A DNA stretch of 64,000 bases from NCBI GenBank assembly GCA_030537195.1, contig JAUNOK010000002.1:21632-85631 (forward strand). Reading direction: 5' to 3'. Positions 10,347 to 41,956 of the stretch are shown here, one piece after another. Under the pieces are notes generated by a model. That model made no database searches. It saw only the letters and a program-made list of their open reading frames with translations, and was not told the DNA's origin. Within the stretch, counting starts at the first letter, position 1, and every line of letters begins with the position of its first letter. The position numbers and the translations under genes were made by a program. Source of the DNA: Eubacteriales bacterium. Its GTDB lineage: Bacteria; Bacillota; Clostridia; Lachnospirales; Lachnospiraceae.

Positions 10347-10474
10347 AATTTTCAAATTATTTTTAAAAAATCACACAAACCTATTGACATAGTAGGAATA
10401 AAGGTTTATATTATCATCAACATCAAGAAAGCAATACATTTTTTGAAATAAATTAAGAAGGATGGTAATTAACT

Positions 10475-12143: not shown

Positions 12144-13337
12144 TTATAATATATTAATAAAGAATGTAATAACAAGACTGTTAAGGAAATCTGCAAAAAG
12201 GCTTCCTATAAGTGGAATAAGAAGATAAGCCTTAACTGACGGAACATATTTGTCACATACAGCCTGCATATTAGCCATGGCATTAGGAGTAGCACCCATA
12301 CCGAATCCGCAAGTTCCTGCAACAAGTACAGCCGCATCGTAATCTCTTCCCATAACATTGAATACAACAAAATAAGTAAATAAAACAATAACAATAACCT
12401 GTGCTCCAAGAAGTATAACAAGTGGAAAAGCAAGTGAAGCAAGCTGCCATAACTTAAGTGTAATCATCGCCATACCTAAGAACAATGATAAACAGATACC
12501 ACCAAGGTCATTGATTTCGCCCATGTGAATAACAAGCTTTCCATGACCTGCATATTCTGCAATATTACGCATAAGAGCAGCTGCAATCATGGCACCTATA
12601 TATATAGGAAAAGTAAGACCAGTCTTAGTAAGTGCCCATGAAAAGATTGTTCCTAAACCTATAGCAAGTATAAGCTGGAATACGGCTGAAGCATACATTC
12701 TTGAGTGTCTTTCATGCTTCTTCTCATCTTCAACAAGAAGGCTGTCATCCTCTGGAATAGCTGTAGATAAGAGATTCCTTTTTTCAATCAGTCTCTTACC
12801 CAATGGACCACCTACAAGACTTCCGAATATAAGTCCAAATGTAGCTGCGGCAGTACATATTGTCGTTGCACCCTGAACATTAAAATCTTCAAGTACCGGA
12901 CCAAATGCACCTGCTGTACCATGTCCACCGACCATAGGAATAGAACCTGTACACATACCTATAAGTGAATTAAGTCCAAGGACTTTAGACAAGCCAACTG
13001 CAACACAGTTCTGTGTAAATATAAGCACAATGACCAGTCCTAAGAATATAACCATTGACTTTCCGCCCTTCTTAAGTACCTTAAGATTAGCCTGGAAACC
13101 AACTGATGTAAAGAAGAATACCATGCATACTTCTTTAAGTGTGTCATCAAATGAGAATTCCAATATATGTGTTACATAACATATACATGTAAATATAGCA
13201 AATAACAGACCTCCGACAACCGGAGCTGGTATACAGAATCTTTCAAGGAATTTGATTTTCTTTCGTAAATAGCTGCCCAGAAGCAGTACAAGTACTGCGA
13301 TAGCAAGCGTCTGATACATATCTAACTGAACTTTCAT
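12144..13337 (-). CDS. gltS: Sodium/glutamate symporter GltS
   Basis: ESS-family membrane profile; N-terminus MKVQLDMYQTLAIAVLVLLLG. Confidence 0.85.
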   Translation of the reverse strand: MKVQLDMYQTLAIAVLVLLLGSYLRKKIKFLERFCIPAPVVGGLLFAIFTCICYVTHILEFSFDDTLKEVCMVFFFTSVGFQANLKVLKKGGKSMVIFLGLVIVLIFTQNCVAVGLSKVLGLNSLIGMCTGSIPMVGGHGTAGAFGPVLEDFNVQGATTICTAAATFGLIFGSLVGGPLGKRLIEKRNLLSTAIPEDDSLLVEDEKKHERHSRMYASAVFQLILAIGLGTIFSWALTKTGLTFPIYIGAMIAAALMRNIAEYAGHGKLVIHMGEINDLGGICLSLFLGMAMITLKLWQLASLAFPLVILLGAQVIVIVLFTYFVVFNVMGRDYDAAVLVAGTCGFGMGATPNAMANMQAVCDKYVPSVKAYLLIPLIGSLFADFLNSLVITFFINIL

Positions 13338-14347: not shown

Positions 14348-15517
14348 TTATCCTCGTAATAATAATTCTTTCTCGTAAACTTTACCGTCCTTTATGTACA
14401 TTCTAGGAACACGCTTACTTACTGCACATGTAAGTTCGTATGGAATAGTTCCCGCAAGCTGTGCCATATGTTCAATGGGATTAGCTTTACCAAATATCTC
14501 AACTTCGCTTCCAACGTCCACGTTCATCTTGTCAGTAAGATCAATCATGCACATATCCATACATATCTTACCTCTCTGTGGAGCTGGTCCTTCCTCAGTC
14601 ATAAGTTCATATCTGTTAGAAAGACATCTGAAATATCCATCTGCATATCCATAAGGAACAACTCCCATTCTTGTCTTTCTCTCAGTCTTATATATTCCAC
14701 CATAACTTATTGCTGTTCCGGCAGGGTAAGTCTTAATTGTGCTTACAGTTGTCTTAAGAGACATAACAGGCTTAAGTCCAAGCTCCTGTGCGAAATCTCC
14801 ATAGCCATAGAGCAGAAGTCCCGGTCTTACCATATCAAGCCATGTTTCCGGATATCTTGCAACAGCACCAGTATTGGCACAGTGTCTTATCTTGAATTTC
14901 TTTCCAAGCTTTTCTTCAACCGCATCGATTACGCTTGTAAACAATTCAAACTGATGCTTTGTATAGGCTTCACATTCTTCTCCGAATTCATCAGATACAG
15001 CAAAATGTGTGAATATTCCCTCAGCATCAAGTCCCGGAAGCGAACATCCCTCACATATTCCTTCGACACCACTGTCAAAGTAATCACCATCACACAGATA
15101 TCCAAGTCTTGACATACCAGTATCAACCTTAATGTGAATCTTTAATGTACCGCCACATCTTACAGCTTCTTCACTGTATTCAAGTGCCTTGGCCTTACAT
15201 GTAACAGCCTGTGTTATATTATTCTTAATGAGCTGCTCAACCTCTTCCTTAGGAGTATGACCAAGTATAAGAATTGGCATTGTAATTGAATTATGTCTTA
15301 ATTCTATCGCTTCATCTATACTACTGACAGCAAGATAATCTGCTCCCAAATCCTGTAACAGTCTGCTCACCTGAACAGAACCATGTCCATAGGCATCAGC
15401 TTTAACTACACCTAAGAACTTAACGTTCTCTCCAATTCTTTTACGTAATGTTTCATAATTGTGTGCAAGTGCATCCATATCTATTTCAGCCCATGTTCTT
15501 CTTAATGTTGAATCCAT
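14348..15517 (-). CDS. alr: Alanine racemase
   Basis: PLP-lysine motif VVKADAYGHGSV. Confidence 0.9.
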   Translation of the reverse strand: MDSTLRRTWAEIDMDALAHNYETLRKRIGENVKFLGVVKADAYGHGSVQVSRLLQDLGADYLAVSSIDEAIELRHNSITMPILILGHTPKEEVEQLIKNNITQAVTCKAKALEYSEEAVRCGGTLKIHIKVDTGMSRLGYLCDGDYFDSGVEGICEGCSLPGLDAEGIFTHFAVSDEFGEECEAYTKHQFELFTSVIDAVEEKLGKKFKIRHCANTGAVARYPETWLDMVRPGLLLYGYGDFAQELGLKPVMSLKTTVSTIKTYPAGTAISYGGIYKTERKTRMGVVPYGYADGYFRCLSNRYELMTEEGPAPQRGKICMDMCMIDLTDKMNVDVGSEVEIFGKANPIEHMAQLAGTIPYELTCAVSKRVPRMYIKDGKVYEKELLLRG

Positions 15518-28517: not shown

Positions 28518-29756
28518 ATGAGTAAATAAAAGAAGAAACTTCCCTTAGCAGCACAGATATTTATTTCGTTAATCCTGGCAATTATCGTTGGTCTGCTGAT
28601 TCAGAAATATGCTGCATTTGCAGAAACTTACATCAAACCGTTTGGTACAATCTTTCTTAATCTTATTAAATTTATAGTTGGACCTATCGTACTGTTTTCA
28701 ATCATGTGCGGAATAATTTCCATGAAGGACATTAAGAAAGTCGGTTCAATCGGCTTAAAAACAGTTGTTTACTATATGTGTACAACGGCATTTGCAATTA
28801 CATTTGGACTGATTGGCGGTAATTTATTTAAAGGCCTTTTCCCTGTTGTCACAACAACAGACCTCGCCTATGAAACATCATCAAAAATGTCTATTATGGA
28901 CACAATTGTTAATATTTTTCCATCAAACTTTCTTGCACCTATAGCAGAATCCAACATGCTTCAGGTCATTGTTATGGCTCTGTTATTAGGTTTTGCAATC
29001 ATACTTATCGGAGATGAAAAGAATCAGGGCATTGTAAAGGCCTGCAACCGCCTGAATGATGTATTCATGAAATGTATGGAGATGATACTAAAACTATCTC
29101 CAATAGGTGTATTTTGTCTTCTGTGTCCGGTTGTTGCAAGTAATGGAGCAGTAATTATCGGCTCGCTGGCAATGGTTCTGCTTACTGCGTATGTCTGCTA
29201 TATTGTACACGGTCTTGTAGTATATTCTATAGCCGTAAAAACTGTTGGCGGAACAAGCCCTGTAAAATTCTTTAAAGAAATGCTACCAGCAATTATGTTT
29301 GCCTTCTCAAGTGCATCTTCAGTAGGAACTCTTCCTATTAATATGGAATGTGTTGAGAAAGTAGGAGCGAAAAAAGAAATATCATCCTTCGTCCTCCCAC
29401 TTGGAGCTACTATTAATATGGATGGAACAGCAATTTATCAGGGTGTGTGTGCAATATTTATCGCATCATGCTATGGAATTAATCTGACATTTTCACAGAT
29501 GATAACGATTATTCTAACTGCAACTCTTGCCTCAATAGGGACAGCCGGCGTTCCTGGTGCAGGAATGGTTATGCTTGCAATGGTACTTACATCTGTTGGA
29601 CTTCCAGTTGATGGTATTGCCCTGGTTGCCGGAATTGACCGTATATTCGATATGGGACGTACTGTTGTCAATATTACTGGTGACGCAAGCTGCTGTGTTG
29701 TAGTAACCAATCTTGAGCGCAAACGTGACATTAGAAAAGCTAAGAAAATGCAATAA
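28518..29756 (+). pseudogene. Dicarboxylate/amino acid:cation symporter (DAACS/GltP family) interrupted by an in-frame TAA at codon 4
   Basis: RBS ggaga + ATG 28518, then AGT AAA TAA (stop 28527-28529). The frame then stays open (KKKLPLAAQIFISLILAII...) into track ORF 28704..29756. The first usable downstream ATG (28704) would delete TM1. Confidence 0.5.
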
Positions 29757-29827: not shown

Positions 29828-30220
29828 ATGGAAAAAGTACTTAATTTTTTAAAAGAAGCTGAGACATATTATTTAGCAACAGTTGAAGGCGACCAGCCAC
29901 GAGTAAGACCTTTTGGAACAGCACACATTTTTGAAGGTAAGCTTTATATACAGACTGGTAAGTCAAAAGATGTATCTAAGCAGATTCACAAGAATCCAAA
30001 GGTTGAGATATGTGCATTTAAGAACGGAGAGTGGCTTCGTGTTGCTGGTGAACTTGTAGAAGATGACAGAAGAGAAGCCAGACAGTCTATGCTTGACGCA
30101 TATCCTTCATTACAGAAAATGTATTCTGCTGATGATGGCAACACAGAGGTTTTCTATTTTAAAAATGCAACTGCTACATTTTCAGCATTTACACACGAAC
30201 CAGAAGTCGTTGAATTCTAA
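29828..30220 (+). CDS. Pyridoxamine 5'-phosphate oxidase-like FMN-binding (split-barrel) protein
   Basis: YLATVEGDQPRVRPFG...KLYIQTGKSK. ATG 29828 follows RBS ggagg. Confidence 0.7.
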   Translation: MEKVLNFLKEAETYYLATVEGDQPRVRPFGTAHIFEGKLYIQTGKSKDVSKQIHKNPKVEICAFKNGEWLRVAGELVEDDRREARQSMLDAYPSLQKMYSADDGNTEVFYFKNATATFSAFTHEPEVVEF

Positions 30221-30252
30221 TTATAACGACAGATAATTCTACATATTTTAAA

Positions 30253-30291
30253 TAGGCTGTTGCATTAGCAAATATTTTTGTTGGCGACAGC
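30253..30291 (+). terminator. Hairpin terminator 1 downstream of the PNPOx-like gene
   Basis: ggctgttgc-(loop)-gcgacagcc. Confidence 0.4.
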
Positions 30292-30308
30292 CCTGCTTTA
30301 TTCCTAAA

Positions 30309-30345
30309 TGGCATCGAAATCGGTTGTGGTTTCGATGCCATTTCT
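30309..30345 (+). terminator. Rho-independent terminator 2
   Basis: ggcatcgaaa-tcggttgtgg-tttcgatgcc followed by atttctt. Confidence 0.55.
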
Positions 30346-30887
30346 TATAACCGCATTTCATTCCCAGCCATCCCTTTTGGCATTCCTTATTTCAAACTGT
30401 TTTATTTAAAATCTATACCATCTTTAATAAAAAAAGATGGCTTCCAGTCTTAATCCTGCAATATAAAGCTTATTTATATTCTATCCCATTGCCATAATGA
30501 CGCTCTATGCCAGTGCATTTGATTTTCCATGGTACAAATATCTCCGAAAATTCATGCCTTATTTTGCATCTCCAGTTTCAATTAATCTTTGGGTAATCAT
30601 TCTTATGGATTCACGTATTCTTTTGCAGATATCCTCTTCAATAAGTGCACATCTGTAACCAATATTAGTTCCCGACAGCTTGTGATTTGCAAACATTGTA
30701 TTATAAAACGCTTACATTATTGCTGTCGATTTTGTTGATAATAATTGTTTATATTTATAAAATATGATAGAATACATATGTATTCATTATTTGTGTCAAA
30801 AAATACATATTTTGAAAAAGACCAAATTAAATTGACACATTCTTTAATAAACAAATTAACAGTTTAATAAATAAAAGAGGAAAGTTG

Positions 30888-31079
30888 ATGAGCGATATAT
30901 TAAGAATCGAAGCAAAGAAATATGTAGAAGAATCAATAGTTATATCTTCCAGAATTCCAAAGGACATGTTGCAAGATATAGATTTTGTCGCAAAGAAATC
31001 GGGAAGAACACGAAACGAGGTTGTAACTATGTTTTTAGAATATTCATTAAAACATACAGAAATAATTAACAAACAGTAA
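30888..31079 (+). CDS. Ribbon-helix-helix (CopG/Arc-type) DNA-binding protein, first gene of the TIR cassette
   Basis: RIPKDMLQDIDFVAKKSGRTRNEVVTMFLEYSL has the RHH beta-strand + two-helix pattern. RBS aagagg lies 7 nt upstream. Confidence 0.6.
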   Translation: MSDILRIEAKKYVEESIVISSRIPKDMLQDIDFVAKKSGRTRNEVVTMFLEYSLKHTEIINKQ

Positions 31080-31099
31080 AAGTAGGAAGGTGTAGTGAT

Positions 31100-32902
31100 A
31101 TGGGAAAGTTTGCGATTGAATGTCCGGTTTGCGGAAAATATGCGGAAGCAAGTACAGGATTTTTTTCCAAAAAGAAAATTGAATGTGCATGTGGAAATGT
31201 AATTAATGTTAGAACTGATAAGTATGCATCAAGAAAATGCGTACATTGTGGCAATCAGGTAATTTTCGATCAAACGAAGGGGGAAGATGCTTTATGTCCG
31301 GTTTGCCATGCAAAGATAAATACCATGGCAGACAATCAAAAGACACAGGAGTTTTCATGCGGACAGTGTGGCATTCGTTTGACAACGGTTACAAGTGCAA
31401 AAACATATGTGTGTCCGATATGCGATTTCGAAAATGATATTCAGGAACGCTTTATGTCAGAAAAAATTAAGAATGATGGTATGGCAAGCATCATAAAGTA
31501 TGAGGGAGATAATTCGACATTCATATGGAAGCATCCAATTGAGGATTTCAATTATGGTTCTCAGCTCATTGTTCATGAGAGTCAGGAAGCAATCTTCTTT
31601 AAGGATGGACAGGCATTAGATTTATTTGGACCAGGTCGTTATACATTAGAGACACAACAACTTCCATTGTTGGAAAAGACATATAGTTTGCCAACTGATA
31701 CCCAGAGAACATTTCATTCAGAGGTTTATTTTATAAATAAAACAGTTCAGATGGCTATTAAGTGGGGAACTCCAGATAAGGTTAGATTCATTGACCCGTT
31801 AACAGGAACACCCCTTGCTCTTGGAGCATCTGGTGAGATGAATATTCAAGTTTCTAATGCAAGAAAGCTTTTAATTAAGTTGGTTGGAACTATGAAAGGG
31901 ATTTCATGGGAAGAAGATCCCGAATTTACGAAATCCTTACAGTCATCATTCCGTCCGTTGATTGTAAACGCGGTAAAGACAAACCTTTCAGCAGTAATAA
32001 AAAATGAAGCAATCGATATTTTAGAGATAGATGAAAAACTGGATATAATCTCTGACAATTTACGTGAAAAAATATTGCCGGGATTAGAAGAATATGGTCT
32101 TACAGTACCTCAGTTTTATGTAACAAATATTGTTTTGCCAGAAGATGACCCTAACTTTAAGAGAATTAGGGAATTACATACAATCACACTTCAGACAAGA
32201 GTAATACAAGCGGAAGCAACCGTAAAAACAGTGCAGGCTCAGGCTCAGACTCAATACAGAATGGCAGAGGAGCAGAGCAAAGCCGCAATTGAAGCTGCTC
32301 ATAGAGAGGCTGAATTGCAACGTCAGACAACCGAAACTGAAATTGCGAAGATGAAAGCAGAGAGGGAGCTTATTGCGGCACAGGCAGCAGCACAGGCGAA
32401 ACGCATGGATGGTATTACTGAAGCTGAGATTATGCAGGCAAAGGGATACAATCAAAAGGATGTCCTTCAGGTAGATGTACAGAAGGCATATGCGGAAGCT
32501 ATCGGAAATATGGGACCAGCTATTTCCTCTGGTGGTGGAAGCGGCATAGTAGGTGATATGCTTGGCTTGGGGGTTGGAATGGCAGCTATGAATGCAGTAG
32601 CACCGCAGGTAGGCGGAATGATAAGTGGAATGGGAAACCAGATGAATCAGGCTATGAATAATGGTACAACTTTGCCATCATTTGCTGAACAGCAGACTAT
32701 GAATACAAATATAACTAGGGCAGTCAATGCTTCGAACACATGGGATTGTAAATGTGGCAATAGAGGAGTGATTGGCAATTTCTGTAATAACTGCGGAGCT
32801 AAGAAACCAGAGCCAGTATCAGCAACATGGGATTGTTCTTGTGGAAATAAGGGAATAATAGGAAACTTCTGCAATAACTGTGGTGCGAAGAGAGGAGAAT
32901 AA
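31100..32902 (+). CDS. Multi-zinc-ribbon protein fused to an SPFH/Band-7 domain (COG4260, B. subtilis YdjI-like) with coiled coil and tandem C-terminal zinc ribbons
   Basis: Five N-terminal CxxC...CxC/CxxC pairs. SPFH core (IIKYEGDNSTFIWKHPIEDFNYGSQLIVHESQEAIFF...AIKWGTP). QAQAQ coiled coil. Two repeats WDCxCGNxGxIGNFCNNCGAK. Confidence 0.75.
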   Translation: MGKFAIECPVCGKYAEASTGFFSKKKIECACGNVINVRTDKYASRKCVHCGNQVIFDQTKGEDALCPVCHAKINTMADNQKTQEFSCGQCGIRLTTVTSAKTYVCPICDFENDIQERFMSEKIKNDGMASIIKYEGDNSTFIWKHPIEDFNYGSQLIVHESQEAIFFKDGQALDLFGPGRYTLETQQLPLLEKTYSLPTDTQRTFHSEVYFINKTVQMAIKWGTPDKVRFIDPLTGTPLALGASGEMNIQVSNARKLLIKLVGTMKGISWEEDPEFTKSLQSSFRPLIVNAVKTNLSAVIKNEAIDILEIDEKLDIISDNLREKILPGLEEYGLTVPQFYVTNIVLPEDDPNFKRIRELHTITLQTRVIQAEATVKTVQAQAQTQYRMAEEQSKAAIEAAHREAELQRQTTETEIAKMKAERELIAAQAAAQAKRMDGITEAEIMQAKGYNQKDVLQVDVQKAYAEAIGNMGPAISSGGGSGIVGDMLGLGVGMAAMNAVAPQVGGMISGMGNQMNQAMNNGTTLPSFAEQQTMNTNITRAVNASNTWDCKCGNRGVIGNFCNNCGAKKPEPVSATWDCSCGNKGIIGNFCNNCGAKRGE

Positions 32903-32904
32903 AT

Positions 32905-33594
32905 ATGGGGCAAAATAATATTAGAGGATACATTGTTGATGCAATATTATTTGTTGTGTTTAGCGTCATTGCTTTTGCGGCACCATTTAAAATGACTGGA
33001 GTATTTTGGTTAGGATATATATTTGGTGTAATTGCAATAGTGTCACAAATATATTTTATAAAGATATCTTTTTTGAATGGTAAAGATGTAAAGAGTAAGT
33101 TTTATGGATTTCCTATAGCAAAGATAGGAGTGTTCTATCTTGGAATACAAGTTGGTTTGAGTTTGGCAGAATTTATTACTGCTGGATTCCTGCCAGTCTG
33201 GATAGCACTTATTGTTAATACGCTTATGATAGCATTTGCTGCGATTGGTACAATAGCTGCAGATGTAATGCGTAATGAAATTGTAAAGCAGGATGTTCAG
33301 ATAAAAATGAATGTAAAAAATATCCGTGCATTACAGTCTCAGACGGTTTCGTTTGTAGATATGTGCCAAGATGCGGATATAAAGAAGCAGTTGCAAGGGT
33401 TGGCAGATGATTTTAAATATAGTGATCCGGTATCATCGGAAGATACTCAAGAAATGGAAACAGAACTGAAATTCCTTGTAAACGAAATCCAGCGAGCACT
33501 TGTAGATGGGGATATGAAATCTGTTGAAAGCTTTTGTGTACGTGTGAAAGCTAGCTTGGCAGAGAGAAACAGAATTTGCAAGTTGGCGAAGTAG
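32905..33594 (+). CDS. Membrane protein with four N-terminal TM helices and ~100-aa cytoplasmic helical tail, translationally coupled to the SPFH gene
   Basis: Hydrophobic segments at about residues 10-30, 35-55, 70-95, 100-125. Stop/start are 2 nt from the upstream gene. No family recognised. Confidence 0.55.
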   Translation: MGQNNIRGYIVDAILFVVFSVIAFAAPFKMTGVFWLGYIFGVIAIVSQIYFIKISFLNGKDVKSKFYGFPIAKIGVFYLGIQVGLSLAEFITAGFLPVWIALIVNTLMIAFAAIGTIAADVMRNEIVKQDVQIKMNVKNIRALQSQTVSFVDMCQDADIKKQLQGLADDFKYSDPVSSEDTQEMETELKFLVNEIQRALVDGDMKSVESFCVRVKASLAERNRICKLAK

Positions 33595-33612
33595 GAGAAT
33601 TAAAGCATATGA

Positions 33613-34300
33613 AAAAATGCACTTGAAGAGATTAATAGTTTTTATAATGATGATCTGGTATGTAAATTAAAAAAGGCAGAGTATTTTGATAAAATTGCAG
33701 GAAGCAGAAAACTGGCAAAAGTGTATTACGATATCGAAAATAAAGTGGCCTTTTCCGGTGCAATAAATGAAAATATAACCATAATGCTTGATGAGGCAAA
33801 TAATAAGCAAAAAGAGGTATTTAACATACAGGCAGCAGATACAGGAAGTTTTTCAGAAGTTAAGGATATAATTGCGGTGATAGGGATTACAAAAGAGGCA
33901 GGAAGCTCTCTTATGAATGTTTTGCTATTTGCTGCAACTGCAATCGGAATTATCGGCACTGACGTTGTGAGGGATGAAGTACAGCATAAGGAAGTGAAAA
34001 TTGAGATAAACACAAGTAGCATGATGAAAATGCGAAATATGGTTGAAACATTGGTGGAAAGTGCTCAGATTCAGAAGCCAGAAGGGCTGTGCAGGAATTG
34101 GCAGCGGAGTTTAAGTTTAGTGATCCGGTGAGTAATGATGGTTTAAAAATTATTGAGATAGAAATAGAAAATTCAATGGAATAACTTCAAAAATGTGTTT
34201 TTAGTGACAATACAGAAGAAGTTATAGAAATGACCAAGAGGACAGTTGCATTGTTAATTGAAAGAAATCAGCAATGTAAACAGTATAAGAAAATATAATG
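33613..34300 (+). pseudogene. Decayed tandem partial duplicate of the 3' two-thirds of gene 32905..33594 (frameshifts and stops)
   Basis: LLFAATAIGIIGTDVVRDEVQHKEVKIEIN parallels LMIAFAAIGTIAADVMRNEIVKQDVQIKMN. After a frameshift, AVQELAAEFKFSDPVS parallels LQGLADDFKYSDPVS. The final segment ALLIERNQQCKQYKK parallels ASLAERNRICKLAK. Confidence 0.55.
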
Positions 34301-34309
34301 AGGTTACTT

Positions 34310-34951
34310 ATGGATAAAGGAATTGTTAGAGAAGTCCTTGAGAGAGGAAAGTACGAGATAGTATTAGAAAAAAGATTTAAAAAATACGCTTGGCGGTTCA
34401 AATTAAGTAATGGAACATCAGTGTACTGTGGAGATAATGAAAAAGTATGGACACAGGGAAAAGCTGGAGTCGATGTAAAACGGTTTCTTGATTTGAATTT
34501 ACCTATCATGTCTAACAATAAAGTTTTTATAGTATATGGGCATGATACAGCTGCGAAAGATGAACTTGTTCACATGCTGCACACTTGGGGAATTGATGCT
34601 TTAGCTATTGATGCCTTGCCTACACAGGGACGTACTATTATCGAACAATTGGAGCATTATATTCCGCAGACAAATTATGGGGTAGTATTGGCTACACCAG
34701 ATGACATTGCTTGTTCTAAAGAGAATCGCACTGTGATGCAGTGCAGGGCACGACAAAATGTTGTACTAGAATTAGGAATGCTTTTGTCAAAGTTAGGAAG
34801 GTCTCGCGTTGCGATTTTGATGAAGGAATGTGAAAATTTTGAAATTCCATCAGATATTGATGGAATTCTTTATATTAGATTTTCCAATTCTGTAACAGAA
34901 GCGGAGAACAGTTTAAAAAGAGAATTGAATTCACATGGATATAATATTTAG
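34310..34951 (+). CDS. TIR-like nucleotide-binding domain protein (COG4271 / CAP12-PycTIR-type TIR-like) with ~70-aa N-terminal domain of unknown function
   Basis: KVFIVYGHD...GRTIIEQLE...GVVLATPDD...ARQNVVLELGMLLSKLGRSRVAILMK...IPSDIDGILYI matches the conserved pattern of this TIR-like family. Start at ATG 34310 after RBS tgagg. Confidence 0.7.
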   Translation: MDKGIVREVLERGKYEIVLEKRFKKYAWRFKLSNGTSVYCGDNEKVWTQGKAGVDVKRFLDLNLPIMSNNKVFIVYGHDTAAKDELVHMLHTWGIDALAIDALPTQGRTIIEQLEHYIPQTNYGVVLATPDDIACSKENRTVMQCRARQNVVLELGMLLSKLGRSRVAILMKECENFEIPSDIDGILYIRFSNSVTEAENSLKRELNSHGYNI

Positions 34952-34975
34952 TAATAATACGAGGGGAGAAGAAAA

Positions 34976-37351
34976 ATGACAATCTTTAGATGCAAAATGT
35001 GTGGCGGTGATTTGGAAATTGCAGAAGGAATTTCTTTCTGCACCTGTGAGTTTTGTGGTACAAAGCAGACAATTCCAACTGTAAAAGATGAAGATCTGCA
35101 GACATTGTTTAACAGGGCTAATGTTCTGCGTATGAAGTCTGAGTTTGATAAGGCGGCAGAGATATATGAAAAGATTCTGTTAAAAAATGAAAGTGAAGCA
35201 GAGGCATACTGGGGATTGATACTCTGTAAGTACGGAATAGAGTATGTGGAGGATCCGGCTACATTCAAGCGCGTGCCTACTTGTCATAGAGCTTCTTATG
35301 ATCCAGTGGTGTCTGATGAAGATTATAAGAGTGCGCTAAATTATGCTGATGCGGTTCAGCGAAACATTTATAAACAGCAAGCTGCTGAAATTGACACAAT
35401 ACAGAAAGGCATTTTAGCACTTGCGCAAAAGGAAGATCCCTACGATATTTTTATCTGCTACAAAGAAACAGATGAATTAGGACAGAGAACACAGGACAGT
35501 GCGATTGCCAATGATATCTATCATCAGTTGACTATAGAAGGCTTTAAGGTGTTCTATGCGGCAATTACGCTGGAAGATAAGCTTGGCACAGAGTATGAGC
35601 CATATATCTTTTCTGCCTTAAATACAGCAAAAGTTATGCTTTCTATAGGCACAAAACCGGAATACTTCAATGCTGTATGGGTTAAAAACGAGTGGTCCAG
35701 ATTCTTGAAAATCATGAAAAAGGATCGTAGTAAACTTCTTATTCCTTGCTATCGCGAAATGGATCCTTATGAGCTTCCAGAGGAGTTCGCCCATCTGCAG
35801 GCACAAGATATGAGTAAGATCGGATTTATCAATGACATTGTGCGTGGTATCAAGAAGGTGATCACCAAAGATTCGCCTAAAACACAGAGTCAGGAAACTG
35901 TAGTTGTACAGCAGGGCGGTTCCGGAACAACCGTAAATGCGCAAATAAAGCGTGGTAATATGGCTCTTGAGGATTGCGATTGGGATAGGGCAGAAAGCTT
36001 TTTTGAAGAGGCGTTAAATCTTGATCCAGAATGTGCAGAGGCGTATCTTGGTCTTTATATGGTAGAACAAGAATTGCCATATATGTTGGATGTACAAGAC
36101 TCATATATATATGATGATGATTATTTTACACATCATCGCTATTGGAAACGCGTGAAACAGTATGCTACAGGAAACCTTGCTAAAACACTAAATAAATGGG
36201 ATCGCATGCGAAGTGCACGACTTCAAAGAGAAAAGGATGATGAGTTTAGAAAAAAGGATGCTGAGCGCAGAGAAGCGGAACAGAAAAAGAAGATAGCTGA
36301 AGATGATAGAAAGAAAAAACTGGAAGTGATTAGACCATTGCAAGAGCAATTGCGAGAAATTGCTGAAGAGGAACGGGAAGAGCTGGAAAAGTTGAATGCG
36401 AATGCAAAAGCGGCATTGGAAATCCTTCAGAATGCGAAGTCGCATGAAAAAACAGAGGTTCAGGAATTTCACAAGTTGGAAGAATTGATTTCATCAAAAA
36501 AAGCAGAGCTATTAGAAATGGGATTTTTAAAGCGAAAAGAAAAGAAAGAATTAAAATCACAAATTGAAAACCTTAGTGAAAATTTATTGAAAGCAAAAAA
36601 TAAAGTTTCCGAAGCAGACGCTAGTATTATTCGATTGAAAAATCAAGCAGAGAAAGCCGAGAAACATATTAAGGAATACAGTGAAAAAGTTGTGAATGGT
36701 AAAAAGAAAAAGATTTTGGAGCAGATATTCAGAATTTTAGAGCTAGATTTTGACGGAGATAAGGTTAAATTTGGTTCTTATAAGAAAGGAGAGGAGGAAA
36801 AAGAACCAATTGAATGGCTTGTATTGGAAATATCGGATAAAGGGATTTTTTTGCTTGCTAAACATATAATTGATACAAAAAAATACCATAATAAGATGGA
36901 TGGCTCTATAACATGGGAGACATGTGACTTGCGGAAGTGGTTGAATAGTGAATTTCTGAATTCAGCATTTGATGATAGTCAGCGAATGATGATTGCACAT
37001 ACGAAGTGTCATACTGATGATAATCCGATGTATGAAACCGAAGGAGGAAATGATACGAAAGATCAGATTTTTCTTCTTAGTATAGATGAAGTAGAGAAGT
37101 ATTTTCCTTCAGATAGTGATATTGAAGAAAAGTTAGAAAACTACGGTTTTGGTAGAAGCCGGTGGTGGCTGCGCTCCCCTGGCGAAAGTAGCAATTACGC
37201 TGCGGGTGTTTATGATGACGGCTCGGTCGACTACGATGGCTGCGAGGTCAACTACCAGCTTAAAAGCGGCTGGGAGGAAGACTATAGTGACCCGGTTTAC
37301 TATATTTATGATTGTGTGCGTCCCGCTTTGTGGATTAATCTGGAATCATGA
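34976..37351 (+). CDS. 791-aa multidomain protein: N-terminal zinc ribbon, TPR-like repeats, TIR domain, long charged coiled coil, C-terminal DUF6273-like domain
   Basis: CKMCGG...CTCEFCG. TIR core DIFICYKETDE...KVFYAAITLE...SALNTAKVMLSIGT...WVKNEWSRF. KEKKELK-type charged helix. C-terminus IEWLVLE...TWETCDLRKWLNSEFLNSAF...WWLRSPG...CVRPALWINL typical of DUF6273. RBS gagggga lies upstream. Confidence 0.75.
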   Translation: MTIFRCKMCGGDLEIAEGISFCTCEFCGTKQTIPTVKDEDLQTLFNRANVLRMKSEFDKAAEIYEKILLKNESEAEAYWGLILCKYGIEYVEDPATFKRVPTCHRASYDPVVSDEDYKSALNYADAVQRNIYKQQAAEIDTIQKGILALAQKEDPYDIFICYKETDELGQRTQDSAIANDIYHQLTIEGFKVFYAAITLEDKLGTEYEPYIFSALNTAKVMLSIGTKPEYFNAVWVKNEWSRFLKIMKKDRSKLLIPCYREMDPYELPEEFAHLQAQDMSKIGFINDIVRGIKKVITKDSPKTQSQETVVVQQGGSGTTVNAQIKRGNMALEDCDWDRAESFFEEALNLDPECAEAYLGLYMVEQELPYMLDVQDSYIYDDDYFTHHRYWKRVKQYATGNLAKTLNKWDRMRSARLQREKDDEFRKKDAERREAEQKKKIAEDDRKKKLEVIRPLQEQLREIAEEEREELEKLNANAKAALEILQNAKSHEKTEVQEFHKLEELISSKKAELLEMGFLKRKEKKELKSQIENLSENLLKAKNKVSEADASIIRLKNQAEKAEKHIKEYSEKVVNGKKKKILEQIFRILELDFDGDKVKFGSYKKGEEEKEPIEWLVLEISDKGIFLLAKHIIDTKKYHNKMDGSITWETCDLRKWLNSEFLNSAFDDSQRMMIAHTKCHTDDNPMYETEGGNDTKDQIFLLSIDEVEKYFPSDSDIEEKLENYGFGRSRWWLRSPGESSNYAAGVYDDGSVDYDGCEVNYQLKSGWEEDYSDPVYYIYDCVRPALWINLES

Positions 37352-38669
37352 TTCTTTATATCTGAAATCAACCACTCAGCGCCATAGGTGCAATCCTTCT
37401 TCCAAGGGGAAGGTGGCACGCGGTAGCGTGACGGATGGGGAACTTTAAGCCACCGACAGGCGGTCAAGTGAAGTTTTTACTATGTGTTCTCCATTATCCT
37501 AAATATGTGATATCAGGGGATATTAATTTAATTTGTGATGAGGTAGGTAATTTGAGTAATTATGTATGGTGTGAATAGTCATGGAACGAAGATAAAGAAT
37601 TAAAGGTCGTAAACAAGGCTAAAGATTTGTGTTCCTATGTTATGAATGTAGAAAAGAAATCTCCCAAAGTATTATCGTTATACATTTGTGAGCCATTTAC
37701 AGAATTTATCATTGTCGGTGATTGAAACATATTATCCGGGCAAATGATGTTTTGCCCAAAAGGGTGATACCATCACGATGGAGAACGATGCATTTTACCT
37801 AAACAGTACGAACTGATAGAGCCATCCAGATAATGGATTGTCAGAACTTGCTTGGTGCTTGGATGAAAAGTGAGAGGAAGAGATTACAACCGTAGGGCTT
37901 AATCAGGGAATTTGATTGAATGGGTAGTCAGCTGGTGGTGGTTGTAATCCCTGTTTTTATATTGACAGGTTGCAAAACGAATTTACCTTTCAAAACAGTA
38001 AAACACAGATAAGTAGTTGCCTTTAACATGAAGCTGTGAGAATATAATTATAGTTATTTGTTTTATATTTTAATTCCTATGTAGGAGTTTGGTTGATTTC
38101 TCTTTAAGATGTTAAGAGAAAACGGAAGAGTCGTGTCTTCAGAGTTATTTGTAATATTCATATAAATGATTGTGAAGACACGGCATGAGCTGCCGCGAGC
38201 AGTAACCGGTATGCCAGTGGGCAAAAATGGACGTGAAGTGTGAAAACACAAATAAAATGGTGGAGAGGGCAGTAAGATGAGTTGCGAATCATCGAGCTGC
38301 TTTTTTCGTTGCAAAGTTTCTAAATGTCGGAACATAAATATATCCCCGACAAACCAATAACTTCTCCCCGCTAAAATTTCTCAAAAGCTGAAATCTGATA
38401 TAATAATTTTAGTTAGATAAAAATGGAGTAACGAATGATTGAAAAAGTTGTATTCATGAACATGTCTGCAGACCATAACGGAAGATGGAATAATTGCAAA
38501 AATACAATAAAAAGTCCTGTCTATGTATATCAAGCAACAGGAGCAATGAAAGCGTTTCAAAACTACAGAACAGCAATTAATGAATAACAGAACCACGCAA
38601 AATGTATATTTTAATCACTTCGCTAAATCACCGTTTAACGAAGTGATTACCACATGACATAGTCTACTA

Positions 38670-39470
38670 TTAAAAGGCGTACCATTCGCACCTTCTCAAA
38701 TCAGTATAAGGCTTGCTTTTTCTTATTCGCTTGCTTTCCATCAAGTCCATATCCGCATATATTATCTGCTCATTATCATCAGCCTTTACAATCACATTAC
38801 CTGATGCATCAACCAATATTGATTCTCCTGAGAATTCCATTTTATCCTCAGTTCCAACTCTGTTGCACATTGCAATTGCGACGCTGTTCTGGAATGCCTG
38901 CACACGAAGTTCCCATTCAAACATTTCAGATGGTTCTGATTTGGTATTTATAGTAGGAATAAGTATTAAGTCCGCGTCCATTAAAGTTTCTGTACGGATA
39001 CTTTCAGGATAATGTCTGTCAAAGCATACAACAATTCCAATCTTGCCAAAAGCTGTGTCGAACACCTTAAATCCATCATCAGATGGTGTATAATAATCCT
39101 GCTCATAAAATTGTTCTGCCTGTGCAACATGTACCATTTTCTGTATTCCCTGAATTTCACCCTTATGATTAATAAAAATGCTTGCATCATATGCTTTTCC
39201 ATTTTCATTCAGATATATATTAGGGACTGCCGATATACCATATTTTTCGCATGTATCTTGAAACTGATGAGCTTCTCTGGAATCAATTGTCAGACAATAT
39301 GCCGACACATCTTTCTTTTCATATTGTGGAAAGAATTCTGTAAGCTGAACCTCTGGAAATAATATTAAGTCTGCACCGTTTTCCGCTGCCTGACGGATAT
39401 ATTCTATACTCTTATTAAGATTAGCTTCCATATTCCCTTCATTTTTCATCTGTGCTAATGCAATTCGCAT
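38670..39470 (-). CDS. Carbon-nitrogen hydrolase (nitrilase superfamily) protein
   Basis: MRIALAQM...ADLILFPE...catalytic triad context (E, K, C in VAIAMCNRVG). Confidence 0.8.
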   Translation of the reverse strand: MRIALAQMKNEGNMEANLNKSIEYIRQAAENGADLILFPEVQLTEFFPQYEKKDVSAYCLTIDSREAHQFQDTCEKYGISAVPNIYLNENGKAYDASIFINHKGEIQGIQKMVHVAQAEQFYEQDYYTPSDDGFKVFDTAFGKIGIVVCFDRHYPESIRTETLMDADLILIPTINTKSEPSEMFEWELRVQAFQNSVAIAMCNRVGTEDKMEFSGESILVDASGNVIVKADDNEQIIYADMDLMESKRIRKSKPYTDLRRCEWYAF

Positions 39471-39627
39471 AATTCCTCCTCTTCCCGATATGTTTTCTTG
39501 ATAATATCAACATATATTTTTCTAATTAAAAAGTCAAGAAGTACTAAACATTACCCTCAATTTGATTTACACCTATATGCCATCATGCTATAATAATTTT
39601 ATATTATTTATTGTAAAGGCAGACATC

Positions 39628-40581
39628 ATGAACAAAACATTAGATGCAACACATTTAAAAATTATAGCAATTATTTCTATGGTTATTGACCATTTTGCAT
39701 GGGGATTCTTAGATTTCTATTCGTGGCAGGGTCAGGTTCTTCATGTATGCGGCAGACTCACAATACCAATCATGTGTTTCTTTATTGCACAGGGATACAG
39801 CAAGACATCAAACCTTCACCGCTATATTGGACGAATGATTATATTCTGGCTTTTGTCCATCGTACCTTTTTATCTATTTTTTCATGAAGAATACGGATTC
39901 AGACAGAATATTATATTCGATCTGTTACTAGGCTTACTTTTCCTTGTCTGTCTTAATAGCAGGAAACTTGCTGTATGGCACAAGGTTTTAATCAGTATAT
40001 TGTTATTCACAGTATCTCTCGTCATTGGCGGCTGGCCGGTTCTTCCTATGGTTTACATAGCAATCTTTTATTTTATTAAGAACTGGAAAAAACAGGTGAC
40101 ATGGTTCTGCATCGCTACTGTATCACTAGTTTTATTCATGATGGCTGCAATCAGCCTGAATCAGATATATCATTTTTCTCACTATAACTGGATATGGTAC
40201 GAAAAAACATATTTCCTTGGATTCATGCTTGCTCTTCCATTGCTTGCCAGATATAACGGTCAGAAAGGCCGTTATCCTATTGGAAAATATTTCTTTTACT
40301 GCTTTTATCCAATACATTTTCTGGTTTTGTATGCATTTAAACAAATGTATCATATATACTCAGGCTATACAGTATATGTAGCTTTACAGGTTTTGACACT
40401 TATACTTGCAATGTATGTTATATATAAAATGAATGTTTCAACAACGTCCATCCAAAGCACAGACTGGCAGTATTCTTTTCGGATGTGCAACAATTATTTA
40501 CATGTATGGATTTCTTCTGGAAGTGACAACTACTACTCTCAGTGGTGTTTATCAGGCTGTAAAAGTCGAATATTTTGGTGA
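39628..40581 (+). CDS. TraX-family membrane protein (C-terminal ~50 aa probably not genuine)
   Basis: LKIIAIISMVIDHFAW is the TraX signature. The 3' tail overlaps the next ORF by 149 nt in another frame and looks like out-of-frame translation (Cys/Trp-rich). Confidence 0.55.
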   Translation: MNKTLDATHLKIIAIISMVIDHFAWGFLDFYSWQGQVLHVCGRLTIPIMCFFIAQGYSKTSNLHRYIGRMIIFWLLSIVPFYLFFHEEYGFRQNIIFDLLLGLLFLVCLNSRKLAVWHKVLISILLFTVSLVIGGWPVLPMVYIAIFYFIKNWKKQVTWFCIATVSLVLFMMAAISLNQIYHFSHYNWIWYEKTYFLGFMLALPLLARYNGQKGRYPIGKYFFYCFYPIHFLVLYAFKQMYHIYSGYTVYVALQVLTLILAMYVIYKMNVSTTSIQSTDWQYSFRMCNNYLHVWISSGSDNYYSQWCLSGCKSRIFW

Positions 40582-41956
40582 ATGCTTCGTTGTTGTAGGA
40601 TTTACATTGTTTTTATCAGAATTCTGTAAAATCCGTATATCCAAATGGCTGTATTTTGTAGAACATATTGTTTCATTTGTGATTATGTATCTTATATTTA
40701 CAACACAGCAGAATCATATATTTTACAGAGATATGCGTATAGTTAATTCTGCGCCACACTCACGTCTTGTTCTTGAATATGGCCCGGGTTTTTATTTCTT
40801 CTTCTGCTATCTTGGTATATTGACTATTGGAACTATCTTGGTGTTTATTAAATCAATGAAAAAAACTACAGCTCTTGGAAAAGCAAGAATCAGACTGATT
40901 ATATATGCCCTTGCCTGTCCATGGATTCCGCTTATTATCCGTGCATCCGGCATTACAGGAGGATATGAAGTATCATTTCTTGGAGTTGCTGCAAGCTCAA
41001 TACTGATTATGACAGCACTTGTAAAATATGGCTATCTTGATTCTGTACAACTTGCCGGAACTAATGCCCTTTTCAATGCAGATGAAGGCCTTATGGTAAT
41101 TGATACTAATAACCAGATTCTTTACTGTAATAAGCGCTTGAACGAATGGTTCCCTGCTGCTGAAAAATACAGTGATGCAACTGACTATATTAATATTAAC
41201 GATGTTCAGCATGGCAATTTCCTAAGGGTCGAATTAGGCGGCTGCATATGTGACATTATTTCAGAGCCAATAATAGAGATGAATGAAATTCAGGGTTATC
41301 TTATTCGTATTATAGACATGACTGAACATTACCAACAGCTTGAACTCGCTGAGAAATCCGCACATATTGATGCATTAACTGGTCTTTGGGATCGTGAATT
41401 ATTCAAACTTACAATGATGGACTATCTTAAGAATAATGGTAATGGAACAATGTTCATGATGGATATTGATAATTTCAAAGGAATTAATGATAACCACGGT
41501 CATGATACCGGAGACAAGGTTCTTATAACGCTTGGTAAGACTCTTACACAAATATGCAATGAAACACACCTGTGCTGTAGAATCGGCGGCGATGAATTTG
41601 GATTATTTCTGAAAGATATTACTACATCAGATGAAATCAGAGAGTACTCTGAGACAATAAGTAACCTATATAAGAAGCTTATTTCAGAAACTGATTCTTA
41701 TGTTAATTCATCTATATCCATCGGTGGAACAATAATTAACAACGAATCTCATAATATAACCATTGATTCATTTGAAGAAATATACTGTAAAGCTGATGAA
41801 GCTATGTATGCTGCTAAGAAAGGCGGTAAAGACAGATATTTTGTGAATAAACTATCAAAAATAAAAATCCGTAACTGCTATTATGTTAAATGCATAGCAG
41901 CTACGGATTTTTATTTTTCAATTATTTCTGATGTGATTTCTTCTCTCTTTTTATAA
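40433..41956 (+). CDS. Membrane-sensor diguanylate cyclase (GGDEF domain)
   Basis: About 6 TM helices at the N-terminus. GGDEF core ALTGLWDRE...MFMMDIDNFKGINDNHGHDTGD...RIGGDEFGLFL. Confidence 0.75.
   Translation: MFQQRPSKAQTGSILFGCATIIYMYGFLLEVTTTTLSGVYQAVKVEYFGECFVVVGFTLFLSEFCKIRISKWLYFVEHIVSFVIMYLIFTTQQNHIFYRDMRIVNSAPHSRLVLEYGPGFYFFFCYLGILTIGTILVFIKSMKKTTALGKARIRLIIYALACPWIPLIIRASGITGGYEVSFLGVAASSILIMTALVKYGYLDSVQLAGTNALFNADEGLMVIDTNNQILYCNKRLNEWFPAAEKYSDATDYININDVQHGNFLRVELGGCICDIISEPIIEMNEIQGYLIRIIDMTEHYQQLELAEKSAHIDALTGLWDRELFKLTMMDYLKNNGNGTMFMMDIDNFKGINDNHGHDTGDKVLITLGKTLTQICNETHLCCRIGGDEFGLFLKDITTSDEIREYSETISNLYKKLISETDSYVNSSISIGGTIINNESHNITIDSFEEIYCKADEAMYAAKKGGKDRYFVNKLSKIKIRNCYYVKCIAATDFYFSIISDVISSLFL

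Follow-up and report, generated by a model that had tools for sequence, protein, structure and literature searches.

Here we describe a gene set carried on an accessory island of the Lachnospiraceae genome GCA_030537195.1 (Eubacteriales bacterium), where genes for a soluble SPFH protein and for a membrane protein with four transmembrane (TM) helices stand close to a gene for a large TIR-domain protein. The island lies within a stretch of 64,000 nucleotides of contig JAUNOK010000002.1 (positions 21,632 to 85,631, forward strand), referred to as the window, and all coordinates without a locus name are those of the window. Six same-strand open reading frames (ORFs), A to F, were found by an ORF scan, with gaps of 20 nt between A and B, 2 nt between B and C and 24 nt between E and F, and with 664 bp of ORF-free DNA upstream of A and 1318 bp downstream of F. 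The scan reproduced the coordinates and gaps of the initial annotation of the locus, which had read the six genes as one unit with two cooperating TIR effectors. Related loci point to a different composition: a ribbon-helix-helix (RHH) regulator, the SPFH and 4-TM proteins and a variable number of TIR sensor proteins appear to form the conserved unit, and E is not part of it. The island and its genes are as follows.

30259..38386, no strand: accessory island of 8,128 bp between the PNPOx gene and a NUDIX-gene remnant, delimited by blastn against the related locus L164
30888..31079 (alternative start 30885), plus strand: A, putative RHH/CopG-like regulator of 63 amino acids (aa), first core gene
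31100..32902, plus strand: B, 600-aa YdjI-like soluble SPFH protein (Pfam PF13421)
32905..33594, plus strand: C, 229-aa integral membrane partner with four predicted TM helices, starting 2 nt after B
33721-34131, plus strand: ORF D, from the ORF scan, a chimera across a recombination joint
34310..34951 (alternative start 34298), plus strand: E, 213/217-aa CAP12/PycTIR-type TIR protein, a member of PADLOC PDC-S35
34976..37351, plus strand: F, 791-aa predicted cytoplasmic zinc ribbon (ZnR)-TPR-TIR protein (Pfam, AlphaFold, Foldseek)
35690..35692, plus strand: codon of Glu239 of F in the WVKNEW motif, an invariant column and the presumed catalytic Glu of a TIR NADase

Predicted proteins of the gene set

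Profile and fold searches recovered both the SPFH and the TIR folds that had been proposed for the locus (Pfam, Foldseek). B matches Band_7_1 (PF13421; E=3.1e-36) with 125.4 bits, where the cutoff is 24, and is built from an N-terminal Zn-ribbon array, the Band_7_1 domain, a coiled coil, a Gly/Met-rich low-complexity region and two C-terminal Zn ribbons, the last of these encoded by a 74-nt tandem duplication (32738-32811 and 32825-32898; copies 76% identical, 87-nt period). It contains seven CxxC motifs (residues 8, 47, 66, 87, 105, 562 and 591), and a PDB sequence search with B gave no match. This soluble architecture, with C-terminal ribbons and a membrane protein encoded next door, bears out the suggested likeness to YdjI of Bacillus subtilis, a protein that has no membrane anchor of its own, contains a region of low complexity as well as a C-terminal zinc finger, and needs YdjG and YdjH to reach the membrane (PMC8581546). 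The adjacent protein, C, is modelled with a pLDDT of 81.6 as four TM helices that lead into a cytoplasmic four-helix bundle, in line with the four TM segments called initially; a hydropathy scan placed TM segments in C only and none in B, E or F. C has no family match in Pfam, NCBIfam or PHROGs, and a fold search with its structure was uninformative. The call of A as an RHH protein holds, albeit weakly: its Pfam match to Arc (E=5e-3) is below the Pfam cutoff, and a PHROG of CopG-like repressors is matched at 5.5e-6.

The architecture originally read for F (ZnR, TPR, TIR, coiled coil and DUF6273) was recovered by Pfam, by an AlphaFold model and by Foldseek. A Cys4 zinc ribbon with two CxxC motifs (residues 2-32) is followed by TPR-like helices, the TIR domain (158-295), a linker, TPR repeats (320-396), an antiparallel coiled coil (399-587) and a DUF6273/C-type-lectin domain (591-788). 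The Pfam matches are TIR_2 (E=7.8e-11), TPR and DUF6273 (E=1.6e-27; PF19789, with a cutoff of 23.5 bits, is matched by residues 624-788 at 96.9 bits). The model has a pLDDT of 82.9, with one low-confidence loop (residues 762-775) in the lectin-like domain, and Foldseek returned TIR matches at probability 1.0 (SPARTA TIR-APAZ, MyD88, TcpB and TIR-STING); the PDB sequence search with F matched TPR repeats only. No TM segment, signal peptide or known secretion-targeting domain was found, which, together with the Cys4 ribbon, shows F to be cytoplasmic in predicted character. In an alignment of 41 full-length F homologues, W235-V-K-N-E239-W240 is invariant, and we take Glu239 to be the counterpart of the catalytic Glu in the 'W/C-x-x-E' motif of known TIR NADases. 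The family is large: a word-indexed search gave at least 8,000 matches, and residues 1-370, used in an exhaustive HMMER search, matched 4,182 cluster representatives (50% identity) at E<=1e-30.

E proved to be a CAP12/PycTIR-type TIR protein, as first proposed (CAP12-PCTIR_TIR, PF10137, E=1e-33), with PDB matches to the Cap12 TIR-STING structure 7un8 (2.8e-6) and to PycTIR (8jsj), and the Glu of its NVVLELG motif aligns with that of NVVFEFG in Cap12. It scores 40.8 bits against the Cap12 equivalog, for which the cutoff is 450, and matches PADLOC PDLC05006 (PDC-S35) over its full length (E=2.5e-68; residues 5-217 align with positions 1-226 of the 231 in the profile); PDC-S35 is a candidate single-gene system on which no paper was found in the literature. 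The likeness to CBASS (Cap12) and Pycsar (PycTIR) concerns E alone and consists of this type of TIR domain with its conserved Glu motif. There is no cyclase (CD-NTase or PycC, the pyrimidine cyclase) among the island proteins, no sensor domain recognised by Pfam in the N-terminal ~70 residues of E, and no SAVED, STING or cNMP sensor domain anywhere in it, and E is therefore no effector of CBASS or Pycsar. A PspA domain is missing from all six island proteins (Pfam), and no close relatives of B or E were found on IMG/VR viral contigs.

Conservation across related loci

Two sets of loci were compared with the window, one seeded with F (79 loci from GTDB species-representative genomes) and one seeded with B (80 metagenome loci). 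The loci were fetched and their six-frame ORFs searched with the window proteins, and a strict subset was defined by at least 4 kb of sequence on both sides. In the F-seeded set, B was present in 53 of 59 informative loci (19 of 25 strictly flanked) and C in 49 of 55 (19 of 25); in the B-seeded set an F-type TIR gene was present in 58 of 59 informative loci (25 of 26 strictly flanked). C lies directly 3' of B in 88 loci. A homologue of A is often the first gene of the cluster; in 18/37 and 7/32 related loci such a homologue stands just upstream of B or of the TIR gene that comes first. E was found in no informative locus under either seed, and thus in 0/25 F-seeded and 0/26 B-seeded fully flanked loci (51 in total).

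The two-way linkage of B and F over ~160 independent loci argues strongly that the SPFH/4-TM module is functionally tied to the TIR protein, and to this extent the comparison supports the initial annotation, which had also proposed such a tie. The single six-gene unit with two cooperating TIR effectors did not survive it. On the linkage data the real unit is RHH + SPFH + 4-TM + n TIR sensors, without E, and E is best described as an independent PDC-S35-type TIR gene outside the conserved core that came with F on a recombined block. Taken overall, we hold these structural claims to be very probable.

The related loci carry between one and six TIR paralogues each. Within a locus the N-terminal halves of the paralogues are on average 49-69% identical and the C-terminal halves 13-40%, and the C-terminal domains of 111 paralogues include DUF6273 (57), RCC1 propellers (17) and leucine-rich repeats (LRR; 7), as well as TPR and RHS. 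The comparison thus shows F-type proteins to have a near-constant N-terminal half joined to interchangeable, putatively ligand-binding C-terminal modules, which in the window are the coiled coil and DUF6273.

In 10 of 159 loci (L014, L017, L021, L070, L076, L085, L103, L111, L112 and L135) a stand-alone SIR2_2-like gene of ~300 aa immediately follows the TIR genes, and in L171 such a gene (9710-10630) lies between C and the TIR gene. The family matches of these SIR2-like genes are SIR2_2 (E=2.5e-6), LmuA (3e-8) and ThsA1 (7e-7), the last two being weak similarities, and their placement suggests TIR-SIR2 pairs inside the system. E occupies the slot that in other loci holds the SIR2-like gene; the cluster therefore has a variable slot in which NAD+-related genes tend to gather. 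Each of the two occurs in a small minority of loci, so neither E nor the SIR2-like gene can serve as the general effector. The L171 set adjoins restriction-modification, GmrSD and HEPN genes. Clostridial-type copies of the gene set were also seen in metagenome-assembled genomes labelled Chloroflexi, Treponemataceae, Bacteroidaceae or Sodaliphilus (L013, L014, L054, L056 and L059), labels that could reflect mis-binning or horizontal transfer.

Mosaic island and retroelement remnant

Synteny between the window and L164, at 93% identity, ends at position 30258 and restarts at 38387 (blastn), and in this close relative the place of the island is taken by an empty site of ~36 bp; we therefore delimit the island as 30259-38386. 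Its right end, 38386, is also the endpoint of the homology with the loci L002 and L003. The window and L164 share MatE-TauE-SDF-PNPOx on the left and CN_hydrolase-TraX-GGDEF on the right (flanks 85-93% identical, CN_hydrolase 91%), so that the accessory cassette in a housekeeping neighbourhood proposed by the initial annotation is what the comparison found. The gene set is accessory, with an empty site in a close relative and a mosaic build. The parts of the mosaic, and the best promoter-like site within it, are listed below.

30259..33700, plus strand: left module with the upstream spacer, A, B, C and the 5' stub of a gene X, 97.9% identical to L170 1-3637
30735..30763, plus strand: sigma-70-like promoter, the best upstream of A, TTGATA-17-TAAAAT (10/12 in a consensus scan; a pattern match only)
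33607..33700, plus strand: 5' stub of gene X, ~32 codons, cut at the recombination joint
33910..34289, plus strand: pseudogene of a C paralogue, C-terminal 127 residues (tblastn with C, E=2.4e-14, two frames)
33909..37475, plus strand: right module, part 1, with the C-paralogue remnant, E, F and the element after the variable region, 94.4% identical to L002 1240-4822 and to L003
37957..38386, no strand: right module, part 2, 430 bp of non-coding DNA, 93% identical to L002 4821-5252 and to L003

The match to L170 spans 30067-33700 and thus takes in chromosomal flank from 30067 onwards. The right block (33909-37475 plus 37957-38386) is 93-94% identical to L002/L003, where it stands between ParE/Phd toxin-antitoxin genes and a tyrosine integrase; A, B and C are not on the available L002/L003 contig, which reaches 2.3 and 3.9 kb upstream of F. 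E and F thus travel on one 4.5-kb block, separate from A-B-C. Between the modules, the translation of the gene X stub (KKNALEEINSFYNDDL.CKLKKAEYFDKIA) equals the N-terminus of a 257-aa gene of L170, and nucleotide homology stops at 33700. Gene X is rare (4 loci); a 233-aa gene of L004 that was considered as a second C paralogue was rejected as such, being this same accessory gene. No homologue of the junction DNA (33701-33908) was found among the 170 fetched loci, and none of the upstream spacer (30259-30884) except in L170.

The decayed duplicate described in the initial annotation is a real remnant of a C paralogue (C residues 103-229, lacking TM1-3, with a frameshift near 34065 and an in-frame stop), although ORF D itself (BLASTP of C against D, E=3e-8) is not simply that duplicate. 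The remnant starts at 33910, coinciding with the left breakpoint of the L002/L003-like block, and because the right block begins exactly there ORF D spans the joint, part of it being junction DNA and part a frameshifted C-terminal fragment of the C paralogue. The island is thus, on these matches, a composite of two modules plus pseudogenes, and the window copy is shown to be a composite and partly decayed example of a gene set that is widespread in gut and rumen Clostridia.

The DNA downstream of F holds further remnants, in this case of a diversity-generating retroelement (DGR), whose usual parts include a variable region (VR) in the target gene, a template repeat (TR), the accessory gene avd and a reverse transcriptase (RT).

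37157..37335, plus strand: VR-type 3' end of F, where the lectin tip is encoded, homologous to TRs of DGR-active relatives
37336..37440, plus strand: post-VR element, with a VR end resembling an initiation of mutagenic homing (IMH) site and a small GC hairpin just after the stop, aligned to four DGR-active loci
37585..37898, plus strand: avd pseudogene (DGR accessory four-helix-bundle protein) in three frames
37899..37951, plus strand: pre-TR spacer and the first ~15-20 nt of the TR, the TR stub lying at 37930-37951

DUF6273 is a C-type-lectin fold that is hypermutated by DGRs in phage tail proteins, with the VR at the C-terminal end (PMC10743442, PMC11792537). The VR of F is 76% identical to the TR of L004 (E=5e-11) and encodes the part of the protein in which the low-confidence loop 762-775 falls. 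Against the 94%-identical copy in L002, the VR stands out as the mismatch hotspot: it shows 39 and 25 mismatches per 100 nt as well as indels, versus 0-1 per 100 nt in the N-terminal half of F. The post-VR element has many columns that are invariant with respect to the four DGR-active loci, is conserved for ~100 nt after the stop, and matches both VR flanks of L004 (blastn). Reading 37351-38669 in six frames had pointed to a broken four-helix-bundle gene. The avd remnant was recovered with the intact Avd of L009 as three frame-shifted segments (tblastn, E=7.5e-19) and matches the avd genes of L004, L009, L054, L056 and L066 (blastn). The homology shared with five independent DGR loci covers avd and the spacer and in each case ends at 37944, ~15 nt into the TR; the DNA beyond the TR stub, including the RT, is deleted in the window, and neither an RT (tblastn with the RT of L009) nor a TR copy for the VR of F was found anywhere in the 64 kb. 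The avd/TR stub segment of 481 bp is missing from L002/L003.

In the DGR-active relatives the intact order is TIR-lectin gene (with VR), avd, TR and an RT with a YMDD motif, and both RT and Avd were found by tblastn. Mismatches within the VR/TR pairs concentrate at TR adenines (17/21 and 18/24 in L004, 16/17 in L009, 18/19 in L054 and 19/20 in L056), a pattern which shows that the intact DGRs of relatives, as read from these pairs, mutagenise the same lectin tip at adenines. One TR in L004 serves two VRs, carried by separate TIR-lectin paralogues that lie 2.2 and 6.8 kb from it; targeting at a distance thus happens in the TIR-lectin family (the L004 copies lie at 7670-7796, 12247-12373 and 14601-14727). 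TRs of other loci were also considered as cognate to the window VR and were rejected, since they show homology but no clear adenine bias. Our conclusion from the alignments is that F either still is a DGR target or was one until recently, and that its local cassette has decayed; a DGR at another place in the genome may target it in trans.

This changes how the surroundings of the operon are read. The long ORF-free flanks noted initially have the sizes reported, yet they are not operon brackets: the downstream 1.3 kb is, by its homologies, mostly a dead DGR cassette. The upstream terminators are present as terminator-like hairpins in the spacer and are no more numerous than in shuffled sequence, and the number of sigma-70-like sites likewise equals the shuffled expectation. 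The link between the DGR and the lectin tip of F, the arrays of TIR paralogues and the composite origin of the island were all missed in the initial annotation.

Further observations concern the ends and flanks of the island. The 430 bp at the right end precede the tyrosine integrase in L002/L003, contain a 90-aa antisense ORF and a 22-nt inverted repeat (38132-38182), and have neither an Rfam family nor a coding homologue. A 32-nt stretch (L002 5367-5398, window 38322-38353) recurs in inverted orientation ~150 bp further on in L002/L003, before the integrase gene, and may be the remnant of a recombination site. Rfam searches gave nothing at gathering thresholds over the whole window or at E-value thresholds over 37200-38750, and no tRNAs were found in the window. 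Between the insertion site and CN_hydrolase (38387-38587) the window has lost, relative to L164, a NUDIX gene, a 57-aa gene, a transglutaminase-core gene and a 93-aa gene, with two short pieces of the NUDIX gene remaining (38387-38465 and 38462-38511); the insertion site is a variable hotspot beyond the island itself. The SDF-family transporter gene (28518-29756) is 97% identical to a 413-aa gene of L164 and has a stop at codon 4 (MSK* versus MSKEKKK), so that the first usable start lies 62 codons into the gene; the stop reflects either a true nonsense mutation or a fault in the assembly. The ORFs of TraX and GGDEF (39562-41956; 339 and 507 aa) overlap by ~150 nt, and the corresponding calls in L164 are 135 and 604 aa, so that the gene boundary or the frame differs between the window strain and L164.

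Proposed function and alternatives

The set was compared with known systems that share some of its parts. As in Thoeris, the TIR protein is the variable and often multi-copy component around a conserved partner, the system centres on NAD+, and some related loci add a SIR2-like gene. In contrast to Thoeris, the island has no ThsA (neither SIR2-SLOG nor TM-Macro), F has no ThsB match (PADLOC, E<=0.01), the partner is an SPFH/4-TM pair, and the TIR proteins are large, with ZnR, TPR, coiled-coil and ligand-binding domains. With their defining partners absent when tested, the set is, as far as its domains tell, not Thoeris, CBASS or Pycsar. The PspA-YdjGHI (SamGHI) module of B. subtilis resembles it in that a CxxC motif opens YdjG (MIISYKCPNC, taken from the primer sequence; PMC8581546), like the N-termini of F and B. 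It differs in that no PspA is present here, the place of YdjG/YdjH is taken by a 4-TM partner from an undescribed family, an additional N-terminal Zn-ribbon array is present in B, and the set is accessory and strictly coupled to TIR genes, whereas YdjGHI belongs to the sigma-W stress regulon.

Two further comparisons concern the lectin tip. Conflict sensors diversified by DGRs have been described in multicellular bacteria (Thiohalocapsa, cyanobacteria) as STAND NTPases or MoxR-vWA ternary systems, with TIR among the effectors (PMC10907252). They share with the present set a cytoplasmic character, a C-terminal C-type-lectin VR and an adjacent avd-TR-RT cassette, which here takes the form of adenine-specific VR/TR pairs on the TIR-lectin genes of relatives; the present set differs in having no NTPase and an SPFH/4-TM partner, in belonging to unicellular gut and rumen Clostridia, and in the dead DGR of the window. 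Phage DGR targets with DUF6273 (tentaclins, targets of Faecalibacterium prophages) have the same lectin-fold domain with the VR at the C-terminal end, but these are extracellular receptor-binding proteins of the virion, whereas in the present set a cytoplasmic ZnR-TPR-TIR protein carries the domain as a fusion. Full-text literature searches turned up neither a published SPFH-TIR system nor an account of Clostridial TIR proteins targeted by DGRs. The initial description of the combination as undescribed therefore stands for the SPFH/4-TM/TIR set and falls for E, a known PADLOC candidate. The domain make-up of the set suggests that it resembles TIR-based sensor-effector immunity.

Our preferred reading, to which we give a probability of about 0.5, is that the set encodes TIR NADase sensors anchored by the SPFH/4-TM pair and giving abortive infection. 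C would be the membrane anchor for an SPFH assembly formed by B, the part that YdjH plays for YdjI in B. subtilis, and the invariant ZnR-TPR half would dock the TIR proteins on this platform. The variable C-terminal domain would bind a ligand derived from an invader, and clustering driven by the ligand through the coiled coil would unite the TIR domains and switch on NAD+ cleavage. The TIR activity would then lead to NAD+ depletion or to a nucleotide signal, with abortive infection as the outcome. Paralogue arrays and DGR hypermutation would broaden the range of ligands, and the RHH protein A would repress the operon. A more far-reaching version, which we put forward tentatively and as rather doubtful, is that ZnR-TPR-TIR proteins serve unicellular gut and rumen Clostridia as cytoplasmic, somatically hypermutable immune receptors, with a DGR-generated repertoire of lectin tips directed at phage or plasmid proteins and TIR NADases that fire on an obligatory SPFH/4-TM platform.

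Several points weigh against the preferred reading. The defence role is inferred from sequence; the catalytic role of Glu239 follows from motif position only, and the role of the SPFH pair from analogy only, with no recognisable nucleotide-sensing or pore-forming domain in B or C. None of B, C and F matches a PADLOC model. Of 109 sampled neighbours within 5 kb, only about 10 match a PADLOC family (E<=1e-10; no baseline), and most are housekeeping genes, so that the signal usual for defence islands is weak; enrichment in defence islands, which had been considered, was dropped on this count. Of 53 loci with a TIR-DUF6273 gene and sufficient sequence downstream of it, only 5 showed DGR parts. Finally, the copy in the window is degraded, with a pseudogene of the C paralogue, a stub of gene X and a dead DGR, and may not be fully functional.

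The main mechanistic rival is a relay of the Thoeris type, in which F-type TIR proteins would sense the invader and make an NAD+-derived messenger, and the SPFH/4-TM complex and/or the NADases of the variable slot (E, SIR2-like) would kill. In Thoeris, thsB arrays sit around thsA, and the arrays of TIR paralogues around one conserved partner pair recall this arrangement. A SIR2-like gene with weak similarity to ThsA1 and LmuA directly follows the TIR genes in ten loci, E has a TIR domain of the type that acts as a nucleotide-activated effector in CBASS and Pycsar, and E and F occur together on the L002/L003 block. Against the relay, a ligand domain of the SLOG, Macro, SAVED, STING or cNMP type is missing from both B and C, the N-terminus of E has no recognised sensor domain, F matches neither ThsB nor another PADLOC model, and the candidate killers E and SIR2 are each confined to few loci; we consider the relay rather unlikely. 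The model of the initial annotation, in which all six genes form one new defence system and the SPFH/4-TM scaffold gates or localises both E and F, seems improbable to us. The shared strand, the tight spacing with 24 nt between E and F, the adjacency of E and F also in L002/L003, and the other NAD+-related genes found elsewhere between C and the TIR gene speak for it. They are set against the absence of E from every fully flanked core locus, its full-length match to the stand-alone candidate PDC-S35, the pairing of E and F in L002/L003 on a contig on which A, B and C are not seen, and the position of E to the right of a recombination joint, with a pseudogene between it and C.

Two alternatives would take the set out of immunity altogether. 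In one, it would be a module for envelope stress or membrane homeostasis akin to pspA-ydjGHI of B. subtilis, with the TIR proteins as adaptors or metabolic regulators that respond to the state of the membrane. The YdjI architecture of B (soluble SPFH, low-complexity region, C-terminal zinc ribbons), the nature of YdjGHI as a stress-sensing membrane complex (PMC8581546; bioRxiv 10.64898/2026.02.06.704340) and the mostly housekeeping neighbours would all fit. There is no PspA gene in the island, however, the set is mosaic and missing from a close relative with an empty site, and both the paralogue arrays with their hyper-divergent ligand-binding ends and the DGR hypermutation of the lectin tip are hard to square with the sensing of a constant physical stress, so that we think this quite improbable. 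In the other, F-type proteins would be exported weapons, bacteriocin-like or host-directed NADase toxins whose DGR-diversified lectin, LRR or RCC1 end binds receptors of target cells, with B and C serving release or self-protection. BspA-type LRR and RCC1 domains are common in surface proteins, and F itself has a PHROG match and a BFVD match to a tail protein (E=6e-6). DUF6273 lectins, moreover, form the receptor-binding tips of phage tail proteins (PMC10743442, PMC11792537). Such an exported role sits badly with the features of F described above, a Cys4 zinc ribbon at the N-terminus and no signal peptide, TM segment or known secretion-targeting domain, and no candidate for an immunity gene was found. 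In addition, the binding end varies here and the enzymatic part is constant, which is opposite to the pattern of polymorphic toxins, and we judge this explanation very improbable.

If the proposed function is true, the TIR module, with at least 4,000 clusters at 50% identity, would belong to a very common immune system of gut and rumen Firmicutes that the defence catalogues do not recognise. It would give SPFH/flotillin-like scaffolds a direct role in bacterial immunity. On the more far-reaching version it would be a new class of TIR defence system with an SPFH microdomain as an obligatory immune component, and DGR-diversified 'antigen sensors' would no longer be confined to multicellular bacteria. 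The fusions of TIR with lectin, LRR or RCC1 domains would be a bacterial counterpart of TIR-LRR receptors without the NTPase, and DGRs would diversify intracellular receptors in unicellular commensals, whereas published work ties such sensors to multicellular lineages. For annotation, the locus carries the lesson that what looks like a neat operon may be pieced together, mosaic-like, from two modules and pseudogenes. The gene set also makes approachable the role of cellular, non-phage DGR targets in gut bacteria and the uses to which YdjI-type SPFH proteins are put.

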